Positions 5,582-50,190 of a stretch of DNA of 64,000 bases are shown here, in pieces. This DNA is from a virus. Each line of letters opens with the position of its first letter. Within the stretch, counting starts at the first letter, position 1. Location: the IMG/VR virus record IMGVR_UViG_3300045988_020586; one strand, given 5' to 3'. A program made the translations under genes and the position numbers. A model generated the notes under the pieces. The model worked only from the letters and a program-made list of their open reading frames with translations, was not told the origin of the DNA and did not search any database.

Positions 5582-5608
5582 ATATCGTTATTGATTAACT
5601 AACGATAT
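5582..5608. promoter_or_regulatory. 9-bp perfect hairpin 11 nt upstream of the start of CDS 4978..5571
   Basis: ATATCGTTA-TTGATTAAC-TAACGATAT. Confidence 0.35.
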
Positions 5609-5666
5609 GATTTTTAAAATATGGTGTATTTTGGCTACACCTTTGCCGTTGTTTATTGAATAAAGC

Positions 5667-5691
5667 AACGCTGATACGAAGATACTCGGTT
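5667..5691. repeat. Family A conserved-loop hairpin, copy A0
   Basis: Loop CTGATACGAAGATACT is closed by a short bulged stem (AAC.G/C.GTT). The 15-mer TGATACGAAGATACT is shared with 13143, 13314 and 13412. Confidence 0.5.
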
Positions 5692-7101
5692 ACTACTTTG
5701 CTTACTTAGTTTTCTAAAGAAAGTTCTACTATTGTAGACGCTTTTCATAGACTTAGCTACACTATTTCTACTACAACAATAGGGTAGTAGACTTGTAGCA
5801 GGAATTACGTACGTATGACGTAATTAACATTTACTGGATTATCCAGGCCCATCGTCTAAAGCTTTGAATGCTTTCTTTGCATAATCAAATGCTGAACTAT
5901 TTTCTGCTATTTTGTTCACGTTTTTTCTAACTTAACTATTCTAATCTTCGTTGGTGAAATTTTGCAGAGCAACTAACACTCATAGAATCTTAGAATCCTT
6001 ATAACCCACGAAAATATGTAGAATCTCGGTCGTATTTCCCTTACTATACTTACAAGATATTCCTACACGATTGTTATTAAAGCAGATGATCTCTACTGCT
6101 AACTTAAAAGCGACTGTCAGCTAGGTCTCCTTACTGCGGTACTCGGCTTATGGCATGTACCCAGCGGTTGGTTATCGGAATGTCTCAGGATCAAACCCAT
6201 CACAGACTTTACGGCTTTTTACATCTTTGCTGATGTTTGCAATTTTTCTGTACCGGTATTACTACCTCCTATTTATAGTGCACGAATATTGGGAATTCAA
6301 CCCATACATTTCATCTTGTCACCCACTTATAAACGTAATATACATGTATAGAGACAGTATACACATATAATATACACAGTCGTTTTACAACATAGAATAT
6401 AAGCTGCCCATCAATTTCCTGTATTGCTTCGAACCTTTGTGTTTACATATACTGTTGCACAGTATACTTTAGCATGGTTGGCATATCGGTTGGCACTCGA
6501 TTTCTTTACCTCAAGTCCTTACTTACAACGTAAGATACACTCTATAAAGGGACATCAATTTTTTGTTAAACATGTTACATTTTAAACTTTCTAGATTTTC
6601 ATAGTCTATATCTTTTGCATACAACATACGCATATATAATATACCAGCTTACTACTCTGTAGAGACTATATAATATTGCATATCATAATACAAATAGACT
6701 ATTGGTCTAAATTGTTTTGGATGAAAGTGGAGGTCAAATGATCCTGGCTGGATATATCTCGAATCAACTTTCTACCTATTTTGCTATTTCTTATTCTAGG
6801 ATAGCTTTCCATCAATTTTCTTTGACTGTAACGGAGTCATCGATCATAGTCTCATGAACGATTTAATTTTCATGGAAATTGGCTGTAAGTTCGGATTGCC
6901 TAACATCCTAATTGCAACTGGAATAGATTTTCACCGCGATCTTCACCCGCGTACGATACTCCCGTAGAGCTTCGATTAAGGGACTGCCCAACCCTTGTGC
7001 TTGTTTTACTTTTATATACCGCATAAACAAGAAAAGCCTGGCGGTCTACCATGAACTCAGACGTCTTACACCTCATCCCTGGCACCCCTTCAATGGAGTT
7101 G

Positions 7102-7118
7102 TGACGAATCGAACGTCA
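7102..7118 (-). other. Orphan tRNA T-arm-like hairpin
   Basis: Reverse strand reads TGACG-TTCGATT-CGTCA. I could not build an acceptor, D arm or anticodon arm around it. Confidence 0.4.
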
Positions 7119-7731
7119 AGGACTATATGCCAACGTATTCACCATACGTCCCGTGAGTATTATCCTCACGATATTGCGTCTTAGATAAATTTTTCGGCCT
7201 TTATACTAGCTTTGGACACTAGAAACACTACCTACGGCTTAATAATACTTCTATATTGTTTGGGATATCCTCGGTTCTTCCAGCACCATGCACCATACCA
7301 TGTATGCAATTCTGTTCACCTACTGGGGACCAATATAGTTCATCTCGTGTAACGTTCGTGTATGCTTAGTATTATCACATACAATTCCGATACGGTTCAT
7401 TATGCCCTTCTTGGGACTTATGCGTTTTTAGATTACACAGCCTCATCCAGCTTGTCTCCAGACGGTTCTCACAAGTCCAGCTGTGTAATCTATAGGAGTT
7501 GATACAACGCTACTCCTACCTATATCAAACCGTTTCAATGTTTGATACATTTCATCCTACCTTTTGAGTGATCTCGCCCTGCAAGACAGGGTTAACATAT
7601 TCTCGGATCCAGTTTAATTTGATTGAGTTTTTCTTCTAGCTCCTTCGCGGGGGGATGTTCCAGAATAGTACGTAGACTAATGGGATCTACTATATGTACT
7701 TACCTAATTATAGCACATAGGGTTCTTATGT

Positions 7732-12070: not shown

Positions 12071-12180
12071 GGTTGTTGTTCAGATTGAACACTCTCTGCG
12101 GGAGGGTGTGGACGTGAGGGGAGTCGACAAAATCTTCAAGTTCATTGCAACTATTCCACTCTGCTCCACGTTATATTTAT

Positions 12181-12798
12181 ATGGAACAGATAAAGAAATA
12201 TATGCAAAACAGAAAGTTAATAACTTTCGTTTGTGATTGTTGTGGAAAAGAAGCTCAAAAACCTCTTTCCGAATACAACAGAAACAAGAAACTTGGTAGG
12301 AAGAATTTTTGTAGTAGAAGTTGTGCAATTCGTTATGCTAATAAAAATAAATTACATACATTTACAGATAAATGTAGAGAACATCTTTTAAGTATTTGCA
12401 ACAATCAAATAGACGAATATACCGATTTTAGATATATCCTTAGAAGTGTCTATAAAAGATTTAAAGAAGTAGATATAGATTTAGAGTATCTAAAACAACT
12501 TTGGGAGACACAAAAAGGAATTTGCCCTTATACTGGTATAAAATTAAAGCTTCCAACATATAAAAGCCATAACTTCTATTTTGATTGTGCATCTTTAGAC
12601 AGAATAGATTCTTCTAAAGGCTACGTTAAAGGAAATGTTCAATTCATATCATTACCTATAAATTATATGAAATCTACTAAATCAGATATTGAAATCAGAC
12701 AATTTCTTAAACAAATTTCTTCTTACACTTCACATTTCTGCGAAGATGAGACTATCTCTTCACCTAAAGAGGTGTTGGGCGCTCGAGCTGGTAATTAA
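12181..12798 (+). CDS. HNH-family homing endonuclease-like protein, free-standing and opposite to the surrounding operon
   Basis: First ATG inside track ORF 12145..12798 (which starts at TTG). N-terminal CxxC...C...C zinc-finger-like segment; C-terminal CPYTG...ASLDRIDSSKGYVKGNVQFISLPINYMK. Confidence 0.6.
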   Translation: MEQIKKYMQNRKLITFVCDCCGKEAQKPLSEYNRNKKLGRKNFCSRSCAIRYANKNKLHTFTDKCREHLLSICNNQIDEYTDFRYILRSVYKRFKEVDIDLEYLKQLWETQKGICPYTGIKLKLPTYKSHNFYFDCASLDRIDSSKGYVKGNVQFISLPINYMKSTKSDIEIRQFLKQISSYTSHFCEDETISSPKEVLGARAGN

Positions 12799-12832
12799 GA
12801 AGACTATACTTCTCCAGTAGTCGTTGCACTTT

Positions 12833-12850
12833 CTTGTGGTGTACCACAAG
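12833..12850 (+). terminator. Hairpin downstream of the HNH gene (weak terminator candidate)
   Basis: CTTGTGG-TGTA-CCACAAG, 7 bp, no U-tract. Confidence 0.25.
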
Positions 12851-13136
12851 CTTAGCTCAGGGTTAGCATGAACAATACTAGCTTTGAGCTATTATTGTTT
12901 TTAGCCTTCCTTGAATTCACCCAATATGGGCTCGGTAAGAACCCCTGTCCAAACAGATTATTTCATACACACTGTACATTTGTTTTGTAAATGTCCTGAT
13001 GATCAGTCAGAACATTTGATTTAAACCACTTTAGGTGCGTTCTAAGGCATTTTTGCGACACTTGTGGTTAATTACTCCACTCGGTGACATACTCTGCCTC
13101 AGAATGCATTAGAACATGGTTGAAAATATATAGGAA

Positions 13137-15542: not shown

Positions 15543-15659
15543 AAATGGCAGTTTTTCGTCTTGTTTTTATCCCTTTCTTAGATACTGCCAAACTCTACCC
15601 AGGACGCTATAATGCGTGATTTTATGCAGACTTGAACTGCTATGTAGGCCTTTAACCTA

Positions 15660-15690
15660 ATAAATCTCGGGGACAGTATAAACTGCCCCC
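15660..15690 (-). terminator. Hairpin downstream of CDS 15702..15923
   Basis: Reverse strand GGGGCAGT-TTAT-ACTG(T)CCCC followed by GAGATTTATT. Confidence 0.45.
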
Positions 15691-15701
15691 TTGAAATGCA
15701 A

Positions 15702-15923
15702 CTAAATATATTTTTCCTCCTCCTCTTCTATTATATCATTCCACGTAAAGTAGAATAATAGAAGGCCAAAAATCAAAGCAACTACCAACCATATTATTAT
15801 AAGACCAATAGCAAGTGTACTTATCTCTCGCACATTACCTAATGCCTTTATAAGGCTAAGTAGCGGATAAAATGAAGCTAACATAATCAATAAGCTTCCA
15901 CCTAAATATATTAATCTACTCAT
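15702..15923 (-). CDS. small membrane protein (73 aa)
   Basis: ORF track; hydrophobic segments; stop codon is TAG. Confidence 0.6.
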   Translation of the reverse strand: MSRLIYLGGSLLIMLASFYPLLSLIKALGNVREISTLAIGLIIIWLVVALIFGLLLFYFTWNDIIEEEEEKYI

Positions 15924-16188
15924 GATCTAGTAATTGTTGAGTTCTACTAAAATTGAAGTCGTGCACAAAATAACTCTCTAGACTATTGCTAAGATATTCT
16001 TTTGTAGACCCAACTTCATATTCACTTTGAGACAATATACATACATCATCATTAAGGGCTTCATCAAACTCTAACAACGCGATATTATTATCTCTACATA
16101 CTTTCTTGAGCTTTCTTACGTCGCTATGAAAACGACGCAACTCAAGTTCAGATTCGGACATTTGTCCGTTCTTTCTACGTTTTGCCAT
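15916..16188 (-). CDS. hypothetical protein (90 aa)
   Basis: ORF track; ATG; overlaps the next gene by 8 nt. Confidence 0.6.
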   Translation of the reverse strand: MAKRRKNGQMSESELELRRFHSDVRKLKKVCRDNNIALLEFDEALNDDVCILSQSEYEVGSTKEYLSNSLESYFVHDFNFSRTQQLLDHE

Positions 16189-18982: not shown

Positions 18983-19460
18983 GAGCATCGAAATAAAACC
19001 TACGTCACTTAGTAAAAGATGATGTAAGAAAATCGGTATGGTAAAAAACAAATTGAAGTGGTTACTGGACTCGAACCGTCGCTATGTTGCGCTTTACTAT
19101 AGCCAAGTACAATATCCATATAATGCATTTGTACATAGTATACCCTCTTGCTTTAGCAAGTGTATAATAACCACTATCCGTCTCTCCAGATTGTCATAGA
19201 GACTGGGTCTACATTTGACAGATTGCACCTTTTGCAAATAGGCTGTAGTTACCGTATCTCAGTTTTACACGTAAACCTATTGCCTATAGACGACTCACCC
19301 TCTGTGTTCTACAATCGACATCTTATAGCTTTGCAAGTACCATAAGCACGTGTTGTAGTCATGGGCTTGGGACCATGAACGCCACATTACTGCCTACGAT
19401 TTATCACGTTAGCGTAGGCGCTCCGTCATCCTAGTTTATATACCGCATGAGATAACGGTT

Positions 19461-19492
19461 TAATACAACTATCTTCACAGACCATTGTATTA
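19461..19492. repeat. Family B conserved-loop hairpin, copy B2
   Basis: Stem TAATACAA/TTGTATTA (8 bp); identical 16-nt loop. Confidence 0.65.
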
Positions 19493-19609
19493 TGAGGTCT
19501 ATTCGCGCTTTGAGTAATGAATCAGACTACACCATGATGCAACATGTGTAGTTTCGTCTAGGTCTCATCAGTGATGATTTTAGACTCTCCCTAGCTGAGT
19601 TTAAATAAA

Positions 19610-19641
19610 ACATACCACTATCTTCACAGACCATGGTATGT
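19610..19641. repeat. Family B conserved-loop hairpin, copy B3
   Basis: Stem ACATACCA/TGGTATGT (8 bp); identical 16-nt loop. Confidence 0.65.
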
Positions 19642-23462: not shown

Positions 23463-23556
23463 TATTACTTACTCCTTTAAGTATTACCCAACCAGCTGTA
23501 ACAGCTATTATTGGGATGATTAAAAATATAGTTATTATATCAAATGGATTCATCAT
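23449..23556 (-). CDS. possible 35-aa single-TM peptide
   Basis: Own translation MMNPFDIITIFLIIPIIAVTAGWVILKGVSNNGKN; stop is TAG; overlaps the start of 23175..23462. Confidence 0.3.
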   Translation of the reverse strand: MMNPFDIITIFLIIPIIAVTAGWVILKGVSNNGKN

Positions 23557-23633
23557 TGTCTGGTTCATAAAACCCTAATCTTCTTCCGTTTTTCTCGGCT
23601 CTTTCTATTATTTCCGCAGCTCTTAAAAAGTCT

Positions 23634-24089
23634 TTATCTTTTGCTATTTTGCTCAGCATGGGCTATGTATTTTGTGCACTCTTCCTCTATAATTTCACCA
23701 TCGTCGTTACGTGTTAAATGTGTGTATTTCATCTTTGATCTGTTGAATTTAAACGCTCTAAACGCCTTATCTCGCTCCTATTTGTCATCATATCTATGGA
23801 TGTATTTCATCATTTGTGTAGCATTTACAGATCCTGCTACCCCAAGATTACATAGGTTTTTAATAAAGCTCATAGCCCCGTCTTCTCCAAACTTATGCTT
23901 TAGCATACTATACTCTTTAAGGCTCTTCTAGAACCACTAATTGTCTATATCGTATACTGGATCTTGCTCAACAATATATGCTATATTTATTGGCACACCG
24001 TGCACAAAGAAGTATTTGCACTACTATGTACAAGGTTTATTTTGATATTGTAGAGATAAGAAGTCAGCGTAATATAGTACGGCGCTCAT
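23634..24089 (-). CDS. hypothetical protein (151 aa) readable only with TAG as sense (5 in-frame TAG)
   Basis: Codon-by-codon check from ATG 24089..24087 to TAA 23636..23634 gives 152 codons with no TAA or TGA. TAG at codons 22, 23, 51, 54 and 104. Not in the ORF track. Confidence 0.6.
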
Positions 24090-24100
24090 CTCAAACTAAT

Positions 24101-24496
24101 TCATACTTTACTTGCTGTTTTGTTTACACACTCTGTAAAGTATCCAATCAAGTATGCGAATACCTCGTTAGTATCTTCAGAGAGATTTATATGACACGAT
24201 TCTAGTATATCTACAGCCGCATGAAATGACTCGTGAGCAAACGTGTTTACATCATTATAATCATTCCAGATCTTGTTTACTACTATGATTTCGCAATCTT
24301 CGTCCGTTGATTTATCATATGCTCCATTTACTGTATAAGCCGTATATTTAGAATATTCACCATCGCATATAGATGATTCATCTTGTCTAAATGCAAATCT
24401 TTTATCTATTACAGACTTATCTGGGTTAACTATAACGAATAAACTAAACCCATATACTGTATTGTATTCGTCTATTATACACTTCTTTTTATCCAT
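24101..24496 (-). CDS. small HExxH-motif protein (putative Zn-metallopeptidase-like), first gene of the leftward arm
   Basis: ORF track; 131 aa; motif FAHESFHAAVDIL. Confidence 0.6.
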   Translation of the reverse strand: MDKKKCIIDEYNTVYGFSLFVIVNPDKSVIDKRFAFRQDESSICDGEYSKYTAYTVNGAYDKSTDEDCEIIVVNKIWNDYNDVNTFAHESFHAAVDILESCHINLSEDTNEVFAYLIGYFTECVNKTASKV

Positions 24497-24507
24497 ACTA
24501 TTCTTAT

Positions 24508-24597
24508 TAGTCTTACTATTATTGTTAAGCTTATATATAGCTCTACTATACTGTAATAGCTTATTATACTATATAGTCTTACTATACTGTAATAGCT
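24508..24597. repeat. Direct repeats in the divergent intergenic region
   Basis: ACTATACTGTAATAGCT at 24545-24561 and 24581-24597; TAGTCTTACTAT at 24508-24519 and 24574-24585. Confidence 0.6.
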
Positions 24598-24799
24598 GTA
24601 CTACTAAAGTAGATCTCCTAAAGAGAATATATAAGAGAAAGGGTTCTTAGTCTGACTAACCCCTACTATCCCCCTAACGCAAAAAAGCTAAAAAAGTTGC
24701 ATATTGAATAGAAAAGTGCAATTTATATAAAATTTTTATGCAGTTTGCAACCATTCTTACAAAAGTTTACGTTATGACGGCGTAAAACAATTAAATTTA

Positions 24800-25226: not shown

Positions 25227-25658
25227 ATGGAAGAAGAGAAGATGATAGATCAGACTCAGCTGGCAGAGGACTTAAGCTCAAAGATAAAGTATGAGTTTAG
25301 ACAGATGTTCTTGGTAAAGCCGCTTGAGCCTGTTAAAGTTAAAAAGAAGATCTCCGAACCTGTGGCTAAGGACACTAAGCCAAAGAAGGATAAGGATGGG
25401 ATCGAAGCAGTTGATTACGATGATGTAAAGACAGAGATTAAGGAAGTTGATTCAGATTTCTCTAGAGCTGTTGTGCTTAAGTTGCCATATGAGTATACAC
25501 ACCCATACGACGATGAAAAGATTCAGCAGATGCCTATCAAGGTTGGTGATATTGTTATATACAGATCTGCTAGAGGAGCTATGTATTTCGACTTACTTAA
25601 AGATTCTCAACTTGTATCTCTTTACGATATTGTAGCAACGGAGACAGTAGAGAAGTAA
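25227..25658 (+). CDS. hypothetical protein (143 aa)
   Basis: ORF track; ATG 1 nt after the previous stop. Confidence 0.7.
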   Translation: MEEEKMIDQTQLAEDLSSKIKYEFRQMFLVKPLEPVKVKKKISEPVAKDTKPKKDKDGIEAVDYDDVKTEIKEVDSDFSRAVVLKLPYEYTHPYDDEKIQQMPIKVGDIVIYRSARGAMYFDLLKDSQLVSLYDIVATETVEK

Positions 25659-25888
25659 TGAATATAGATAAAGTTTGTAGATAGATCGGACGACAATTAA
25701 ACGAAGATCCAGAACTAGTAAAGCAAATAGTAATGCATTAGTTCTAGTTTGTAGTTGATGTTATGAAAGATCCAGATGACACTAGAGATGTGTTAATAAA
25801 CAAACTATTTAGATTCAAGCTTAAGAATAGATTTAAAGATAATAAGAATAAACCATTAAGTCCATATGAAGAAGATAATAAACATTGA
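25658..25888 (+). CDS. possible 76-aa protein with 3 in-frame TAG
   Basis: TAATG start overlap. With TAG=Q it reads MNIDKVCRQIGRQLNEDPELVKQIVMHQFQFVVDVMKDPDDTRDVLINKLFRFKLKNRFKDNKNKPLSPYEEDNKH; TGA stop. Confidence 0.45.
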
Positions 25889-26584: not shown

Positions 26585-26658
26585 AGTCTATTAGTCAAAC
26601 GGTAAAGACAGCCCGATATAAAGGGAATAGTTAGCAGGTTCGACTCCTGCATAGACTC
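26585..26658 (+). tRNA. tRNA-like gene with aberrant anticodon arm (identity undetermined; possibly a pseudo-tRNA)
   Basis: Good acceptor AGTCTAT/ATAGACT, D arm GTC(A)..(A)GAC and T arm GCAGG-TTCGACT-CCTGC. The anticodon region gives only CCC/GGG with an 8-nt loop GATATAAA. Confidence 0.45.
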
Positions 26659-27124: not shown

Positions 27125-27195
27125 CGCGGGATGGTGAAATGGTATCACGTGTGGCTCATAACCATAGATTGCTAGTTCGACTCTAGCTCCCGCAA
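27125..27195 (+). tRNA. tRNA with anticodon CAT (Met), with a C1.A72 mismatch
   Basis: CGCGGGA-TG-GTGA AATGGTA TCAC-G-TGTGG CTCATAA CCATA-GATT-GCTAG TTCGACT CTAGC-TCCCGCA-A. Confidence 0.75.
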
Positions 27196-27349
27196 CACTG
27201 AGCTTCGATTGTGTGGTGTTCTACATATTTGGCCACCAGGAGCGAAATTGATATCAGAAAAATATGTCGGCTACAATGGTTTAAAGTGTAGCAATGTAGT
27301 TTTAGGCAGATAAAAAGCTCGGTAGCCTAAGGTGAGCTTCTACAATATT
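27196..27349 (+). ncRNA. Structured spacer downstream of tRNA-Met
   Basis: AAGCTC-GGTAGCCTAAGGT-GAGCTT; CTACAT/ATGTAG long-range pair; shares the 11-mer GAGCTTCGATT with position 6967. Confidence 0.3.
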
Positions 27350-27413: not shown

Positions 27414-28316
27414 ATGGAAAATAAAATATATAAACTCTCAGACGAACAGTTTGTTGAGTTACTCAAGAAAAGTTCAACAATATCTGAAGTGTTGTTTAAA
27501 CTTGGTTATACAGTTAAAGGAAACTCTTGGGGATATTCCCAAGTAAAAAGAAGAATGGATGATCTGAATTTAGACTATTCTATATTCAAAGGCAAATCAG
27601 CTGTTATAAAAACAACCAAGTTAAACAATGTAAAGAAGGAAGATATACTAAAGAAAAATTGTAGGCATCAGCGTACAGTACTAAGGAGATACGTTATTAA
27701 AAATAATTTAATCCCATACAAATGCGCGATATGCGGATGCACCGAATGGCAAGGAAAAACATTAAGCTTGGAACTTGATCATATAAATGGTGTAAACAAT
27801 GACAATAGATTAGAAAACCTTAGGTTTTTATGCCCTAATTGTCATAGTCAAACTTCAACGTATGGAAGCAGAAATCAGCAACTTAATAGTTCTGAATATG
27901 ATATCCCAGACGATTTAAGAAAGATGGTTGAAGAGAAGTATGATGAAGTTAAAAGTGTTAAAAGAGTATCATCAATACTTGGAATACGAAGATGCGTTGT
28001 TACAAAAATAGTTAATGAATCAGGTCAAAAACATTCTAATCAAAAGTATATAATAAGGTACGATAAAGATTGGAATGAGCTCGCAAGATACGGTTCTCTC
28101 GTAGAAGCTGCCAAAGCTTTAATAGAAGCTAATGAAGTTAAAACAAAGCGAGTAAAGACTTGTACTAGAACTATAATGTACAATAAAGATAATTTTTGGT
28201 TGAACAGTCATTGGAAAATATTGGATGGTAGCGGGATAATAAATAATCCGCTATTAGAACCTTCTCTAATTGACTCGGAAGACACTGTTGACGAGGCGCA
28301 AGCGAAAGCAGCGTGA
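27414..28316 (+). CDS. HNH homing endonuclease, free-standing
   Basis: 300 aa; CAICGCTEWQGKTLSLELDHINGVNNDNRLENLRFLCPNCH; no internal TAG; TGA stop. Confidence 0.8.
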   Translation: MENKIYKLSDEQFVELLKKSSTISEVLFKLGYTVKGNSWGYSQVKRRMDDLNLDYSIFKGKSAVIKTTKLNNVKKEDILKKNCRHQRTVLRRYVIKNNLIPYKCAICGCTEWQGKTLSLELDHINGVNNDNRLENLRFLCPNCHSQTSTYGSRNQQLNSSEYDIPDDLRKMVEEKYDEVKSVKRVSSILGIRRCVVTKIVNESGQKHSNQKYIIRYDKDWNELARYGSLVEAAKALIEANEVKTKRVKTCTRTIMYNKDNFWLNSHWKILDGSGIINNPLLEPSLIDSEDTVDEAQAKAA

Positions 28317-28433
28317 CAGACTAAACGAGAAGGCTGACCTTAGGGTTGGATGCAATAGTCGAGCTAATGAACCCCGGGGGAGTGGGGGCAGCACCTACAT
28401 GGGCGACAATAATTAAACAATATTATAAATACT

Positions 28434-29908
28434 ATGGAGTTAAAATTTAAGAGACTTGAGGACGAAGCGGTCCTCCCTATTCGTAGCACAGAAGGTGCTG
28501 CAGGAATTGATTTGACATGCATTAAGATTGATACAGCTCTTAATGAAGCAAATCAGCTAATGTTGGTTTACCATACAGGATTGGCAGTTGAGATTCCTGC
28601 CGGATATGTTGGTTTACTTATACCACGCTCTAGTATTTGGAAGAAATCATTATGGCTTACTGATAATGTTGGAGTGATTGACGCTAGAATATTGATACGT
28701 TATTGAGTATCAATGCAACCAACTCTATTCGCATATCGTTATGATGATATAACTAAACACAAAATATCATGATAACAAAAATTTGCAAACAATGTGGTAA
28801 GGAATTTGATGTACCAGAATACAGAAAGGATGCTAAATACTGCTGTGACGAATGTAAACACAAAGCACTGCATGGAGATTTAAATTGTGAGTGTGAGGTT
28901 TGTGGCAAGAAATTCCACTTAAAACCATACGCTCTTAAAAAGAGTAAACATCATACATGTAGCCGCGAGTGTTTAAACAAACTTAAAAGTACATTATATA
29001 AAGGTGAAGGAAATCATCAATATGGTCTAAAAGGCGATAAGAATTCATCTTTCAAAGGAAACGTAATCCTGCGTAAGAACAATGGACTAATCGAGAGAAT
29101 GATCTACAATCCTAGACACCCATACGCTGATCGTAATGGTAGGATTAAGGAACACAGATTAATAGTTGAGCAGAATTACAAAATGTTTGACGATAAATAC
29201 TTTGAAGTTATAAACGGAGAGCATTATTTAAAGAAGAATGTAGATGTACATCACATTAACTTTAATCATAACGATAATAGAATAGAAAACCTAATTCCCT
29301 TGACTAGAGCGGAACATACAAAGCTTCATAACCAAAATGAAGTTATATACAGAAATGAGAAGGGAATGATAATTGGTGTCTTAAAACAGGGTGAATTGCT
29401 GGAAAAGCCTGAAGAGGTCAATCAGCAGCCAAGCTTGGGTAGTGATACCCTTGAAGGTTCAGAGACTAACAGCCGAGTCTTACGAGACAGTAATGCTGAC
29501 ACGAGTGCCCTGCCCGGAAACGGTGAAGATATAGTCCGATCTACTGATAACAAAATAAACAGTAGAAATATAGAGATAAAGAGCTCTATAGATTAACAAC
29601 TCCTAATTTTGTTGGATTATAGAGGAGAGATTATAGCTATAATGAAAGCCACAACAGATGTGGTTCCTGCTATTTATAAGCAGGGCGAGCGCTTCTGTCA
29701 GTTGGTCATAGTTCCGGTGCCAGAATACGAGGTTACAGAAGTGTCTGAGCTTTCTGATACAAAACGAGGCGAGAATGGCTTTGGTTCAACTGGTACCGAT
29801 AATAAGGAAGTTAGCGCAGCTGCGGGAACTGAGGCACAGGCTAGCGAACAGCCACAGTCCGTACCAGAGCAAGCGGCGGCACAAGATGGTGCTGAGGTAG
29901 GTGAGTGA
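28434..29908 (+). CDS. dut: dUTPase, split gene: join(28434..28685, 29615..29908)
   Basis: Exon 1 ends ...NVGVIDA and exon 2 starts DYRGEIIAIM..., so joining restores the GVID.DYRGE motif. Other motifs: AAGIDL, IPRSS, KRGENGFGSTG. Confidence 0.8.
28686..29614 (+). mobile_element. Group I-like intron in dUTPase carrying an HNH ORF
   Basis: The junction is set by the protein motif. The 5' exon ends in T (28685) and the intron ends in G (29614), as expected for group I. Local helix ATTGATAC-GTTATTGA-GTATCAAT near the 5' end. Confidence 0.65.
28769..29596 (+). CDS. Intron-encoded HNH homing endonuclease
   Basis: 275 aa; N-terminal Cys clusters; VDVHHINFNHNDNRIENLIPLTRAEHTKLH; no internal TAG; TAA stop. 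Confidence 0.8.
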   Translation: MITKICKQCGKEFDVPEYRKDAKYCCDECKHKALHGDLNCECEVCGKKFHLKPYALKKSKHHTCSRECLNKLKSTLYKGEGNHQYGLKGDKNSSFKGNVILRKNNGLIERMIYNPRHPYADRNGRIKEHRLIVEQNYKMFDDKYFEVINGEHYLKKNVDVHHINFNHNDNRIENLIPLTRAEHTKLHNQNEVIYRNEKGMIIGVLKQGELLEKPEEVNQQPSLGSDTLEGSETNSRVLRDSNADTSALPGNGEDIVRSTDNKINSRNIEIKSSID

Positions 29909-29928
29909 CAAGCTTGACGATCCTACAT

Positions 29929-29965
29929 AAAGGGGATTACCGAAAGGTAGTTCCCTTTTACTGTT
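29929..29965 (+). terminator. Terminator-like hairpin after dUTPase
   Basis: AAAGGGGATTACC-GAAA-GGTAGTTCCCTTT (GNRA tip) followed by a T-rich stretch. Confidence 0.55.
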
Positions 29966-29994
29966 TATATATAAACAATATAGTATTAAATAAT

Positions 29995-31431
29995 ATGAAT
30001 TTTAAGAAACAACCATTAAAAGGTGTAGAGATACATGGCGCTCCACAAGTTGGTACGCGTACAGTAAATATCTTAATGGGCGAACACGCAAACGAATTTG
30101 TCCGTGGTGATATTATGGATGCTAATGCAGTATTGCAGGCATTTGATGAGCTTAAGGGTAATGTTGATACAGATCATGATACGCTTGAAGAGCTTGTTAA
30201 TGAAATCCATAAAAATGCTAATAATATTAGCAATAATAGCACATAGATACAAAAAGTTGATGCCGCATCAAAGGCTAGAGACGAAAAAGAAGCAAAGGAT
30301 AGAACCGATGCAGATAATGCTCTCGGGGTAAGAATTGACGAAGAGGCAGCTGCTCGTAAGGCAGCAGACGCAGCAGAGTTATCTAGAGCAACACAGGAAG
30401 AGGCTAGACTTGATGCAGCAATTAAAGCTGAGGCTAATACCAGAAAGCTTAACGATGATACTATTACAAGCGCATTAAATGCAGAGATTGCCCGTGCAAA
30501 GGCTGCTGAAAAAGATAATAGTAACTCAATTGCAGCAGAAGCTGCTACAAGAAAGTCAGAAGACGACGCTATTAAGAATCTTCTTCAGAATGAGGTAACT
30601 AGAGCTACTGCTGCAGAGACAACACTTCAGGGTAACATAGATAGAGAAGCTGAAGAAAGAAAGGCAAGCGATAACACTATTACAACTAATCTTAACAATG
30701 AAATAGCAAGAGCAAAAGCTGCCGAAAAAGACAACAAGGATAGGATTGATGTACTTGATGGAGATTCTAACACAGAAGGATCTTATAGAAAAGCTATTAA
30801 AGATCTTATCAACGGCGCTCCAGAAGCATATGACACACTTAAAGAAATTGCTGACAAGCTTGCAGAAAATGATGATCTTCATCAGGCTATTGAAGAAGCT
30901 ATTGCAACAAAAGCCTCTAAGGAAGAGCTTAAAGCAGAATCAAATAGAGCAAAGGCTGCTGAAGCTGATAATGCCGCTGCAATAACAGCAGAGAAGAATA
31001 GAGCTACACAGGCAGAAAGTAATATTACTTCAAATCTCAACAAAGAGATAGATAGAGCCAAGAAGGCAGAGTAGGCTAACACTACAGCTATTACAAGCGA
31101 GGTAACCAGAGCTACTGCTAAGGAGGCAGAGTTATCTAATTCTATCGCTGCCGAAGCTAGTACTGCTAGAGCTGCTGAAAAGGCAAACACAGATAAGATT
31201 AATACAGAAATTCAGGATAGAAAGAACGCTGATACAATACTTAATAACGCAATTAATAAAGAGGTAACAGATAGAACTACTGCAATCTCTAATGCTACAA
31301 CAACTCTGAATAATAGTATTAATCAGGTTAGTACAAATCTTGCTAATCTTACAGCTACTGTAAACAACATTAGTGCATCAGTATCAAATATCACAGCAAT
31401 TAGCACAGATTATATTAACGGTTTAAGCTAA
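29995..31431 (+). CDS. Tail fibre-like coiled-coil protein (478 aa; 2 in-frame TAG)
   Basis: ATG at 29995. Frame checked across TAG 30244 and 31072. Repeated ..EIARAKAAEKDN.., ..RATAAE.. heptad-like segments. TAA stop. Confidence 0.7.
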
Positions 31432-47776: not shown

Positions 47777-50190
47777 ATGAATAATTCAAGTTCTTTATTA
47801 AATAATCTTCAGCTCTACCGTGGTAAGCGTTTTGCTGACTTGGTAGACGAAAACATGATTGCTAATGCAATGCTTACAAAGCCTCATGAAGTAGCAGGCT
47901 TGTTGTCATTGGTTTTTGGTACAAAGGATGATGGTATTTCAACTACCATCGACTTGTTAACTGGTGGTCTTGGTTCAACCATGACTATCGAAAACAGAGA
48001 GTATGAGTGGTCTGTAATGATTGATGCTGACCACGCTGTTAATATCCGCTATGCTAAGTGGAATGGCAAGGAGATCACTCCTAAGTCAATTACAGACGGT
48101 TTGACCCCAGGTATTAATAATACTCCTATTTATCTTGGTCTTGAGGAGAAATGGTTCGGTGGGTTCTATAGCGCATAACCTGTGCCGCCTTTTATAGTAA
48201 TATAAATTGAAAAATCCAGAGAATTGCTGGAAACTCCTAAAGAATTTTATACCCTAGAGTTATAAATAAAATTATAGATATATGAATAATATAAAAAATG
48301 GACAATCAGCAGCCGAGCAAGGCTACTAGATGAAAGACATACCGGGATGGGAAGGTCTTTACGCATGTACAACACATGGTGATATTTGGTCATATAGAAG
48401 TGATAAGTTTTTATCGCCAAGTAAAAATAAAAGAGGTTATCTACACGTTACTTTTACAAAAGATGGCAAAAGATACGATTATAGAGTCAATAGACTTGTA
48501 GCTATGACATTTCTAGATAACCCAAACAATTTGCCACAAGTAAACCATATAGATGGAAACAAATTGAATAATTATCTATCTAATCTAGAATGGTGCACAC
48601 CAGAATATAATATACAACACGGAAAGGAACACGGATTGTTTAAAGGACATTGCTTTAATCCTCCAATACATACAAAAGATGGTCCACAAGTTGCATATGT
48701 ATTTACTAATGTTTATAATGGGGCGCAGTTCACCATATATGGTTTTAAAGCTTTGAGGAAGCAATTTAGAATAAGTGGTTATACTTATGGGTTGATTCAA
48801 AAACATGCGAACACAGGAGACTATATTAAAGCTGGATTGCTTAAAGGTCTTCGTGTTGACAAAGTAGACTTGAAGGTTCATCGACTAACCGCTAACCACG
48901 GTGTAGGGTCAAGTGACCCGAAGTACTGGAAACCCTTTCTTTAGGGTTGTGATATAGTCAATTCTTCATCGAAAGATGAAGCTGCTAGCGAGAATGCCAT
49001 AGCTAGCGATTCGGAATTAACGACTCCGAGTGAATAAAAAGCCAGGCGCTATTTTGGCATTTGACAACGTAAACTTCCAGGTACGTGTAAACGGTACTCC
49101 ATATCAGGATGGTAGCACATGGGTATATGAGTGCTACGTAGCAGAAGGCTTCCAGGGTTCTTATATTCCTTGTGAGTATTTGCTCCCAGGTCGTCAGGTA
49201 GATCGTATCGGTTCTGCATACGAGGAGTACAGTGATGAGGCAGATATCATCAACTATCAGACTCCATTTAAGATGCGTAATAGCTTGATGACTATGCGTC
49301 TTACTTACGATATCACCGGTGATGCTTACTCTACAGTATTGGCTATCGCTTTGACTGATCCTGAGACAGGCAAGAAGTCTTATTTGTGGTCTGACTATCA
49401 GTATTGGAAGGCTCTTCGTGAGTGGAAGAAGAGAGAGGAGAAGCAGTTGCTGTTCGCTCACTCTAACCGTAATGCAGATGGTACTTATAATCTGAAGGGT
49501 ACTAATGGTCGTTTCGTTCCAATCTCTGCAGGTTTGTTCGAGCAGATTGCTCCAGCTAACGTACGTTACTATACAAAGCTGACTACAGAGTTGTTTGAGG
49601 ATTACCTGTTCGACCTCTGCTATAATATCATCGGTACTAACGAGCGTAAGTTTGTTGCCTTGACTGGTGAGATGGGTATCCGTGAGTTCGACCGTATCTT
49701 GAAGGAGAAGGCAGCTAGCTTCAATATGATTGACACACACTTCATTACAGGTTCTGGTCAGGATCTGAAGTTGGGTGGTCAGTTCACAACTTACACTATG
49801 ACTAATGGTATTGAGTTGACAGTTAAGCGTTGCGCTATGTTTGATAACATGGAGATGTTCCGTCAGCTTCACCCATTGACAGGTAAGCCATTGATGTCTT
49901 ACACATTCTTGTTCGTTGATCTTGGTCGTCGTGATGGTCAGGCTAACATCGTTAAGGTATGTCGTAAGGGTCGTGAGTTCGTACAGTGGTGTACTGGTGG
50001 TTCTGTATTGCCAAATGGTTATGCAAACAACATCAATACTATGCGTTCTAACAGCCGTGATGGTTACCAGGTACACTTCCTTGGTGAAGAGGGTATCATG
50101 TTGAGAAACCCATTGTCATGTGGTATCTTGTACTGTGATGCTGAAGACCAGGAGTCTATTGCAGTTGAGAATAGAGCAGCAGAGCTCTAA
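47777..50190 (+). CDS. Major capsid protein, split gene: approx. join(47777..48160, 49033..50190); no TAG codons
   Basis: Two long, strongly codon-biased ORFs flank an HNH ORF, at the expected position after portal/scaffold. The combined ~513 aa is capsid-sized. The junction is inferred from a P1-like helix with T48160.G48182 and from frame continuity. Confidence 0.7.
48161..49032 (+). mobile_element. Group I-like intron in the capsid gene (boundaries +/- ~10 nt)
   Basis: Exon frames differ and are separated by stops. P1-like pairing GT|GGGTT..AACCTGT; 3' hairpins TCATC-GAAA-GATGA and TCGGA..TCCGA; the intron would end in G49032. Confidence 0.6.
48330..48944 (+). CDS. Intron-encoded HNH homing endonuclease (NUMOD4-like N-terminus)
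   Basis: IPGWEGLYACTTHGDIWS...QVNHIDGNKLNNYLSNLEWCTPEYNIQH; no internal TAG, but the stop codon itself is TAG (48942-48944). Confidence 0.8.
   Translation: MKDIPGWEGLYACTTHGDIWSYRSDKFLSPSKNKRGYLHVTFTKDGKRYDYRVNRLVAMTFLDNPNNLPQVNHIDGNKLNNYLSNLEWCTPEYNIQHGKEHGLFKGHCFNPPIHTKDGPQVAYVFTNVYNGAQFTIYGFKALRKQFRISGYTYGLIQKHANTGDYIKAGLLKGLRVDKVDLKVHRLTANHGVGSSDPKYWKPFL

Follow-up and report, generated by a model that had tools for sequence, protein, structure and literature searches.

In crAss-like phages, stop-codon recoding is mostly confined to late genes (Yutin et al. 2021, PMC7886860), and stops in frame have been proposed to hold back translation until the code is switched (Borges et al., 10.1101/2021.08.26.457843). 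A preference for TAG was reported in four crAss-like families, among them one whose function is unknown, and the TGA-recoded Agate phages have an early gene that harbors a recoded homing-endonuclease gene, which has been read as a case of delayed translation (10.1101/2021.08.26.457843). The idea that stop recoding serves timing rests almost entirely on the genome placement of the recoded genes. The gene described here, which lies in a 64-kb stretch of viral DNA (hereafter, the window), displays the same pattern of TAG at Gln positions as the code-15 late genes of crAss-like phages (PMC7886860; 10.1101/2021.08.26.457843; Peters et al. 2022, PMC9523058), and with the code-15 crAss-like genomes it shares both the division into low-TAG and high-TAG blocks and a product proposed to await suppression. 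Unlike those late genes, it is located in the low-TAG arm, overlaps a TAG-free gene and lies outside the structural/lysis block; none of the tests run marks it as structural or as a lysis gene, and the 64 kb contain no CUA tRNA. The Agate homing endonuclease is similar in being a single strongly recoded gene within a standard-code early region, but it is mobile, intron-borne and reads TGA as Trp, whereas the present gene is conserved and core-like, reads TAG as Gln and bears no sign of mobility. Its closest described counterparts are cr124_1 gp45 and cr7_1 gp71, which share 85–86% amino acid identity with it, occupy the same place after a gene for an HExxH-motif protein with the same ATGA overlap, have four of the six TAG positions in common with the window (codons 3, 28, 59, and 109), and carry no functional or regulatory annotation. 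Already known, therefore, are the gene itself, annotated as a hypothetical protein, and the delayed-translation strategy as described for crAss-like phages.

The 4 kb around the gene are 82% identical at the DNA level to the RefSeq crAss-like phages cr124_1 and cr7_1 (Crassvirales, Suoliviridae, Oafivirinae, genus Burzaovirus). The window consists of two divergent arms that meet at ~24.5–24.8 kb, with an intergenic region at 24497..24799 as the presumed promoter site. From ~29.6 kb onwards the right arm is heavily TAG-recoded, with ORFs of 340–1186 codons that each hold 11–22 in-frame TAGs and no TAA or TGA, so that in-frame TAG is present in the hallmark structural genes of the same genome. 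The recoded gene occupies 23634..24104 on the (-) strand and encodes, with TAG read as Gln, a protein of 156 aa (MNQFEMSAVLYYADFLSLQYQNKPCTQQCKYFFVHGVPINIAYIVEQDPVYDIDNQWFQKSLKEYSMLKHKFGEDGAMSFIKNLCNLGVAGSVNATQMMKYIHRYDDKQERDKAFRAFKFNRSKMKYTHLTRNDDGEIIEEECTKYIAHAEQNSKR) that is the orthologue of cr124_1 gp45 (YP_010113117.1). It is a genuine, strongly constrained gene of genetic code 15 (TAG = Gln) and comes second in a leftward operon whose other genes are compatible with the host code.

The original prediction had the gene run from ATG 24089 to TAA 23634 on the reverse strand, i.e., 152 codons with TAG at codons 22, 23, 51, 54, and 104 and with zero TAA or TGA, which is what the DNA contains. 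The frame, the TAGs and the 11-nt gap after the TGA of the HExxH gene were thus read correctly, but ATG 24089 is 15 nt too short as a start. Upstream of 24089 the frame stays open, and ATG 24104 overlaps the HExxH-gene TGA as ATGA (gtATGAatTAG). An alignment of 33 family members has the N-terminus MNxxE(L/M)(S/N)A(I/V)LYYAD in every lineage, with N2 and E5 nearly invariant, and the five codons added by ATG 24104 are conserved at the protein level inside the close clade. We place the start at ATG 24104 because this N-terminus, MNxxE(L/M)SAILYYAD, is conserved family-wide. Consequently, while 21 codons ending at the TAG-TAG pair would indeed be translated in the host code from ATG 24089, only two codons would be translated from the family-wide start.

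Counted from ATG 24104, the gene has six TAGs, at codons 3, 27, 28, 56, 59, and 109. Codon 3 (24096..24098, (-) strand, as are the others) is TAG in 29/30 sequences of the Burzaovirus clade and TAT in the remaining one. In the tandem TAG TAG of codons 27–28 (24021..24026), most relatives have GAA or GAG at the first position, and the second is TAG in 29/30 and CAA in one. Codon 56 (23937..23939) is CAA in 22/30 relatives; codon 59 (23928..23930) is TAG in 30/30 and also in the independent lineage L195; and codon 109 (23778..23780) is TAG in 28/30, CAG in one and GCA in one. A metagenomic variant (P0001; 99% identical, corresponding to window 23540-24104) has a frameshift near the C-terminus that fuses the recoded gene to an overlapping downstream ORF of 39 aa (MLSKIAKDKDF...; window 23540-23659).

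The length of the open frame, put forward originally as a sign of coding, is weak as sole evidence: the chance of 157 TAA/TGA-free codons is ~1e-3 per start, and several antisense ORFs of comparable length exist within the window, so that comparative evidence has to decide the status of the gene. Homologues were found at >40 loci of Oafivirinae crAss-like phages, including 28 IMG/VR loci (85–97% identity) and 8 GenBank phages, and six GenBank phages of other genera have proteins with 42–47% identity to the recoded protein. A search of 5.8 billion proteins yielded 121 homologous protein clusters, and the RefSeq hypothetical proteins cr124_1 gp45 (YP_010113117.1) and cr7_1 gp71 are annotated through six in-frame TAGs. 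Over the whole ORF, dN/dS is 0.02–0.06 at a dS of 0.7–1.3 or more, and by segment it is 0.01–0.38, including every segment downstream of TAGs; the constraint is strong purifying selection throughout. None of the 30 distinct Burzaovirus-clade sequences has TAA or TGA in frame. Structure prediction of the Gln-substituted protein, which had been suggested together with the survey of relatives, gave a confident AlphaFold2 model on the family alignment (pLDDT 91.3, pTM 0.83) with an alpha/beta fold. Low dN/dS, homologues, TAG/Gln swaps and this model agree with the protein-like translation noted at the outset and establish a real coding gene.

That the frame is open by chance, or is a pseudogene decaying through nonsense mutations, has next to no probability in our estimate. 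In its favor are the TAA/TGA-free frames of similar length that occur by chance on antisense strands of the window and the Bohxovirus PV686213 homologue with an in-frame TAA, the single such codon in the relatives' frames. However, a frame under a dN/dS of 0.02–0.06 along its full extent, with >120 homologous clusters and a confidently modeled product, in which TAG is the sole stop codon to accumulate and does so at Gln columns, is not a decaying one, and we rule this reading out on these four lines of evidence. In the Bohxovirus homologue (locus L031, 3486-3990), codon 97, which belongs to a Gln column, is the TAA, and codon 125 is TAG. Its frame is conserved for 70 more codons past the TAA, and the record annotates the first 96 aa only; the TAA may have arisen through a recent nonsense mutation or a sequencing error, or it may be read through.

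TAG is present in at least one sequence at 13 alignment columns. It swaps with CAA or CAG among the 30 clade sequences in seven of these (21, 28, 47, 56, 97, 109, and 152), and in the other TAG columns it alternates with the single-step neighbors GAA/GAG, AAA, and TAT. Only one Gln column never shows TAG. Since TAG alternates with CAA/CAG in this way, it is most likely a sense codon for glutamine in the recoded gene; it stands at the Gln positions of homologues, and the frame is conserved downstream. The earlier claim that a full-length product needs TAG as an amino acid is borne out by the same column swaps; its synthesis would then probably depend on suppression. Conservation of the individual TAGs is another matter. 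The load is kept within the clade (5–8 TAGs), but single TAGs are no more conserved than synonymous codons, with a major codon at ≥0.93 in 4/9 Gln columns versus 64/121 degenerate columns overall. Special selection on the TAG positions themselves is thus not suggested by the alignment, in which the load, not the positions, appears as the stable feature, and selection for gating is inseparable on these grounds from tolerance of TAG.

The description of the left arm as otherwise standard in code and using TAG as a stop is accurate. Its 29 other credible genes contain 0 internal TAGs against 135 CAA/CAG codons, and 5/29 terminate with TAG. The RefSeq annotation of cr124_1 agrees, as the TAGs of its left arm outside gp45 are all at the extreme C-terminus and are real stops that were read through by the code-15 gene caller. 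The recoded gene, with 6 TAG to 5 CAA/CAG, differs from the left arm (Fisher p=3.8e-8) and does not differ in TAG load from the late genes of the right arm (145 to 241; p=0.35); its TAG fraction is 0.55, compared to 0.38 on average and up to 0.64 in late genes. Among the left-arm genes it alone contains internal TAGs. Six other left-arm ORFs with internal TAGs (15567-16064, 19404-19634, 6582-6812, 7239-7400, 7443-7598, and 12080-12361) were rejected as genes because their translations do not resemble proteins, because they overlap a ribozyme or fall in unannotated conserved DNA, or because relatives match them only in part.

The upstream neighbor (24101..24496, (-) strand) encodes a putative small zincin-type metallopeptidase of 131 aa without any TAG, which matches phrog_1365 (unknown function). 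Residues H88, E89, H92, D96, and E111 are conserved without exception across 7 diverse sequences, and all zincin-family matches (DUF5700, Peptidase_M78, SprT-like, and Tox-MPTase2) are sub-threshold. A profile search of PDB sequences returned nothing relevant, and a single-sequence AlphaFold2 prediction reached a pLDDT of 52, which makes the model unusable and its Foldseek matches meaningless. Wherever this gene is directly upstream, it overlaps the recoded ORF by 4–13 nt, and wherever it is present it has 0 TAGs; as it has just 1–7 Gln codons, this absence is weak evidence alone.

In most lineages the recoded gene is physically coupled to the HExxH gene, as had been claimed, and the two, far from never co-occurring, are paired in Burzaovirus, Bohxovirus, Buhlduvirus, Dulem virus 42 and three more metagenomic lineages. 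With the HExxH gene directly upstream, the ORF holds 5–8 TAGs in the Burzaovirus clade, 6 in L195 (45% identity), mostly at other positions, about 6 in Dulem virus 42, 2 in L194, 1 in cr273_1 (Buhlduvirus), 1 plus the one in-frame TAA in Bohxovirus PV686213, and 0 in L192. The partner is lacking in L193 (3 TAGs), in cr130_1 (Chuhaivirus) and cr131_1 (Cacepaovirus) with 1 TAG each, and in a distant subfamily (L037 and L196) with 0. TAGs have, judging from these alignments, built up at different positions in several independent lineages, and the presence of 0–1 TAG in L192, cr273_1, cr130_1, cr131_1, L037, and L196 means that gating is neither ancestral nor obligatory in the family.

We lean towards a functional gating of the recoded gene by the code switch at the level of translation, a reading drawn from codon content and gene arrangement. 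Under the standard code a ribosome that starts at ATG 24104 would halt after two codons, so the full-length protein of 156 aa would probably accumulate only under active amber suppression. Its mRNA is probably made together with that of the HExxH gene, which is itself translatable from the start; the shared transcript is argued from the overlap with this TAG-free gene. Translation would then be deferred to the phase of the heavily recoded structural genes, a timing deduced from codon content, and the gene would be “late-by-translation” inside an early or standard-code arm. The TAGs would act as ordinary Gln codons of which the load matters, and the product may be either dispensable before the switch or harmful if made early. 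Such delayed translation is a reasonable proposal that matches published models, and the isolation of the gene in a standard-code arm is statistically strong. The gene had originally been suggested to be a built-in timer or a sensor of the recoding state. A sensor needs a regulatory output, of which there is no indication; the hypothetical timer would be the general scheme of the literature (Yutin 2021, Borges 2021/22) carried over to an individual gene, and it is compatible with that scheme.

Overlapping TAG-free and TAG-loaded genes, probably on one mRNA at the head of a standard-code arm, are an arrangement that recurs in independent lineages. The probable shared mRNA and the contrasting TAG loads make the pair a natural internal reporter of the code switch, and the ratio of HExxH protein to recoded protein would directly measure whether and when the switch gates translation.

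Two other readings accept the gene and its code and explain the TAGs differently. If the protein were simply unneeded before suppression, CAA and CAG could drift to TAG unselected, and the TAGs would be without regulatory role. The turnover of TAG columns at the pace of synonymous sites (the 4/9 and 64/121 given above) is what such drift predicts, and so is a TAG load that ranges from 0 to 8 among lineages. It accounts less easily for the retention of 5–8 TAGs in 30/30 clade sequences despite near-saturated synonymous sites, for high loads that arose independently at least three times, and for 29 neighbors with none; moreover, the translational delay would persist as a consequence even then. 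We consider this tolerance a possible but rather unlikely explanation. Alternatively, the gene could be transcribed late from its own promoter, located within the HExxH gene or immediately behind it, the TAGs being nothing other than late codon usage. Its TAG fraction is in line with that of late genes, and in Chuhaivirus, Cacepaovirus and L193 it follows the divergent region directly, with no HExxH gene in between; in most lineages, however, the start/stop overlap of 4–13 nt is the usual mark of co-transcription and coupling. A scan with consensus promoters, which does not cover those of Bacteroidota or phage RNA polymerases, scored no better than shuffles. A late promoter is improbable in our view.

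A third and quite doubtful reading, resting on sequence comparison, adds a function to the preferred gating: an early, potentially harmful HExxH zinc peptidase would be neutralized after the switch by a Panacea-like recoded partner. The Panacea fold is rich in helices and includes a small sheet; it carries a GPV motif and lacks a solved-structure homologue, and Panacea antitoxins neutralize unrelated adjacent toxins through direct binding (Kurata et al. 2022, PMC8832971). The commonest weak Pfam match of the recoded family, obtained for 17/52 members, is PF13274 (SocA_Panacea), which covers the N-terminal helix and the H-G-x-P strand. Its best match has 18.6 bits (E=0.0037) and stays below the gathering score of 25.7 bits, and the window protein itself has no match to PF13274. 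Using hhalign, two alignments of the recoded family were compared to 29 DUF4065 proteins, relatives of Salmonella phage Emek YP_006560565.1 that were found via the supplement of Kurata et al. and form a narrow subfamily; against this narrow set the probabilities were 0.8% and 0.1% over 27–37 columns. Membership in Panacea/DUF4065 was consequently not assigned, the Pfam matches being sub-threshold and the hhalign probability <1%.

Some features do recall PanA and Panacea proteins: a length of ~150 aa, an N-terminal helix LxxxLYYA(D/Q)xxSL followed by an H-G-x-P strand, a helix and small-sheet fold without a PDB homologue, and a tight two-gene unit. The family motif (H)-G-x-P, with an invariant P38 in a predicted strand, is positioned like the Panacea GPV, but the order of residues is different (G-x-P, not GPV), and the partner of the recoded gene, located upstream, encodes a putative zincin and is not among the documented PanT toxins. 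The antidote reading would accommodate the conserved overlapping two-gene arrangement, the PF13274 matches and the empty Foldseek result, given that Panacea lacks a solved-structure homologue (PMC8832971). It sits poorly with scores that all fall below gathering, with hhalign values of 0.1–0.8%, with the lineages in which the recoded gene has no HExxH partner, and with a peptidase assignment made from a motif and weak matches. If true, it would describe a toxin/antidote-style module timed by codon reassignment instead of transcription or proteolysis, in which the TAG-free zincin would be made from the first translation round and its coupled, TAG-loaded partner would later switch off or redirect the enzyme, and it would work in a lineage that has lost its own suppressor tRNA from the usual locus.

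Whichever role the recoded protein plays, it adds to phage proteomes an uncharacterized family, absent from Pfam and PHROGs, with a confident model and no match among solved structures. The Gln-substituted protein was assigned to no family in Pfam, PHROGs, NCBIfam, or PADLOC, and a profile search of PDB sequences gave chance matches only (E>0.1). In Foldseek searches of the pLDDT-91 model against PDB and BFVD, the only match at E<0.001 was a 32-residue fragment from the family itself. When 1.84 billion representative proteins were searched with the profile, 88 matches were obtained, all of them family members or fragments apart from one spurious repeat protein, and word-indexed protein searches with the family alignments added nothing further. 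Many of the matches are fragments, which is to be expected if gene callers using the standard code split the gene at its TAGs.

A suppressor tRNA is presupposed by the gating model, and ARAGORN and Rfam detected none with a CUA anticodon in the 64-kb window, outside of which ~38 kb of the genome lies. The tRNAs of the window are tRNA-Ile(GAT), tRNA-Lys(TTT), and two tRNA-Met(CAT). In most relatives, a tRNA-Sup(CUA) gene lies rightward of the divergent region at a distance of ~3 kb; that of cr124_1 is at 47896-47967 of NC_055899. At the equivalent site (27125-27196, (+) strand), an unrelated tRNA-Met(CAT) takes its place in the window and its nearest relatives, and exact-pattern scans for the relatives' suppressor had no match in the nearest complete genomes. 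A TAG-reassigned Crassvirales genome of 101 kb with the same four tRNAs likewise has no CUA suppressor genome-wide (preprint 10.64898/2026.08.21.746148); a Segatella/Prevotella host is predicted in the same preprint. These results weaken any detailed “timer” scenario.

A tRNA-like RNA at 26585-26658 (+) scored 37.9 bits on the Rfam tRNA model, above the gathering score, and had been missed by ARAGORN and by the whole-window Rfam scan. It has a short anticodon stem and an 8-nt loop (GAUAUAAA) without CUA. In all Burzaovirus-clade loci it is 95–100% identical, far above nearby synonymous sites, and its few differences are located in the anticodon arm.

Upstream of the HExxH gene, the divergent intergenic region contains a 28-nt direct repeat in two copies (24534-24561 and 24570-24597, 36 nt apart), the core of which, AGCTATTACAGTATAGTA on the (-) strand, is not repeated elsewhere in the window. 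The 18-nt core is not a genome-wide motif, and a scan for sigma-70 consensus promoters and terminators gave nothing above shuffle expectation, the consensus being unsuited to Bacteroidota and phage RNA polymerases.

Further elements were observed in both arms. Group I introns (Rfam RF00028) are found at 12728-13020 (-) and 29316-29557 (+), with 81 and 65 bits, respectively; the latter is at the end of ORF 28769-29596, where relatives have a dUTPase, and an HNH endonuclease gene (27414-28316) lies nearby. The left arm has a RAGATH-1 hammerhead ribozyme (RF03152, 71.9 bits) at 19520-19601 (-). From ~5600 to 7700 (-) it contains no credible ORF, yet it is conserved in cr124_1, where the corresponding 2 kb (28218-30381) are an annotation gap; the short TAG ORFs of this stretch have 82–92% identity, which is probably nucleotide conservation, and it may represent a non-coding RNA or a fragmented gene. 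Finally, a second isolated recoded gene is present at 25658-25888 (+), among the TAG-free genes that start the right arm. This gene codes for 76 aa and has its TAGs at codons 9, 28, and 30, positions that it shares with cr124_1 gp41; what is likely its counterpart in the distant locus L037 is free of TAG and matches Bac_DNA_binding weakly.
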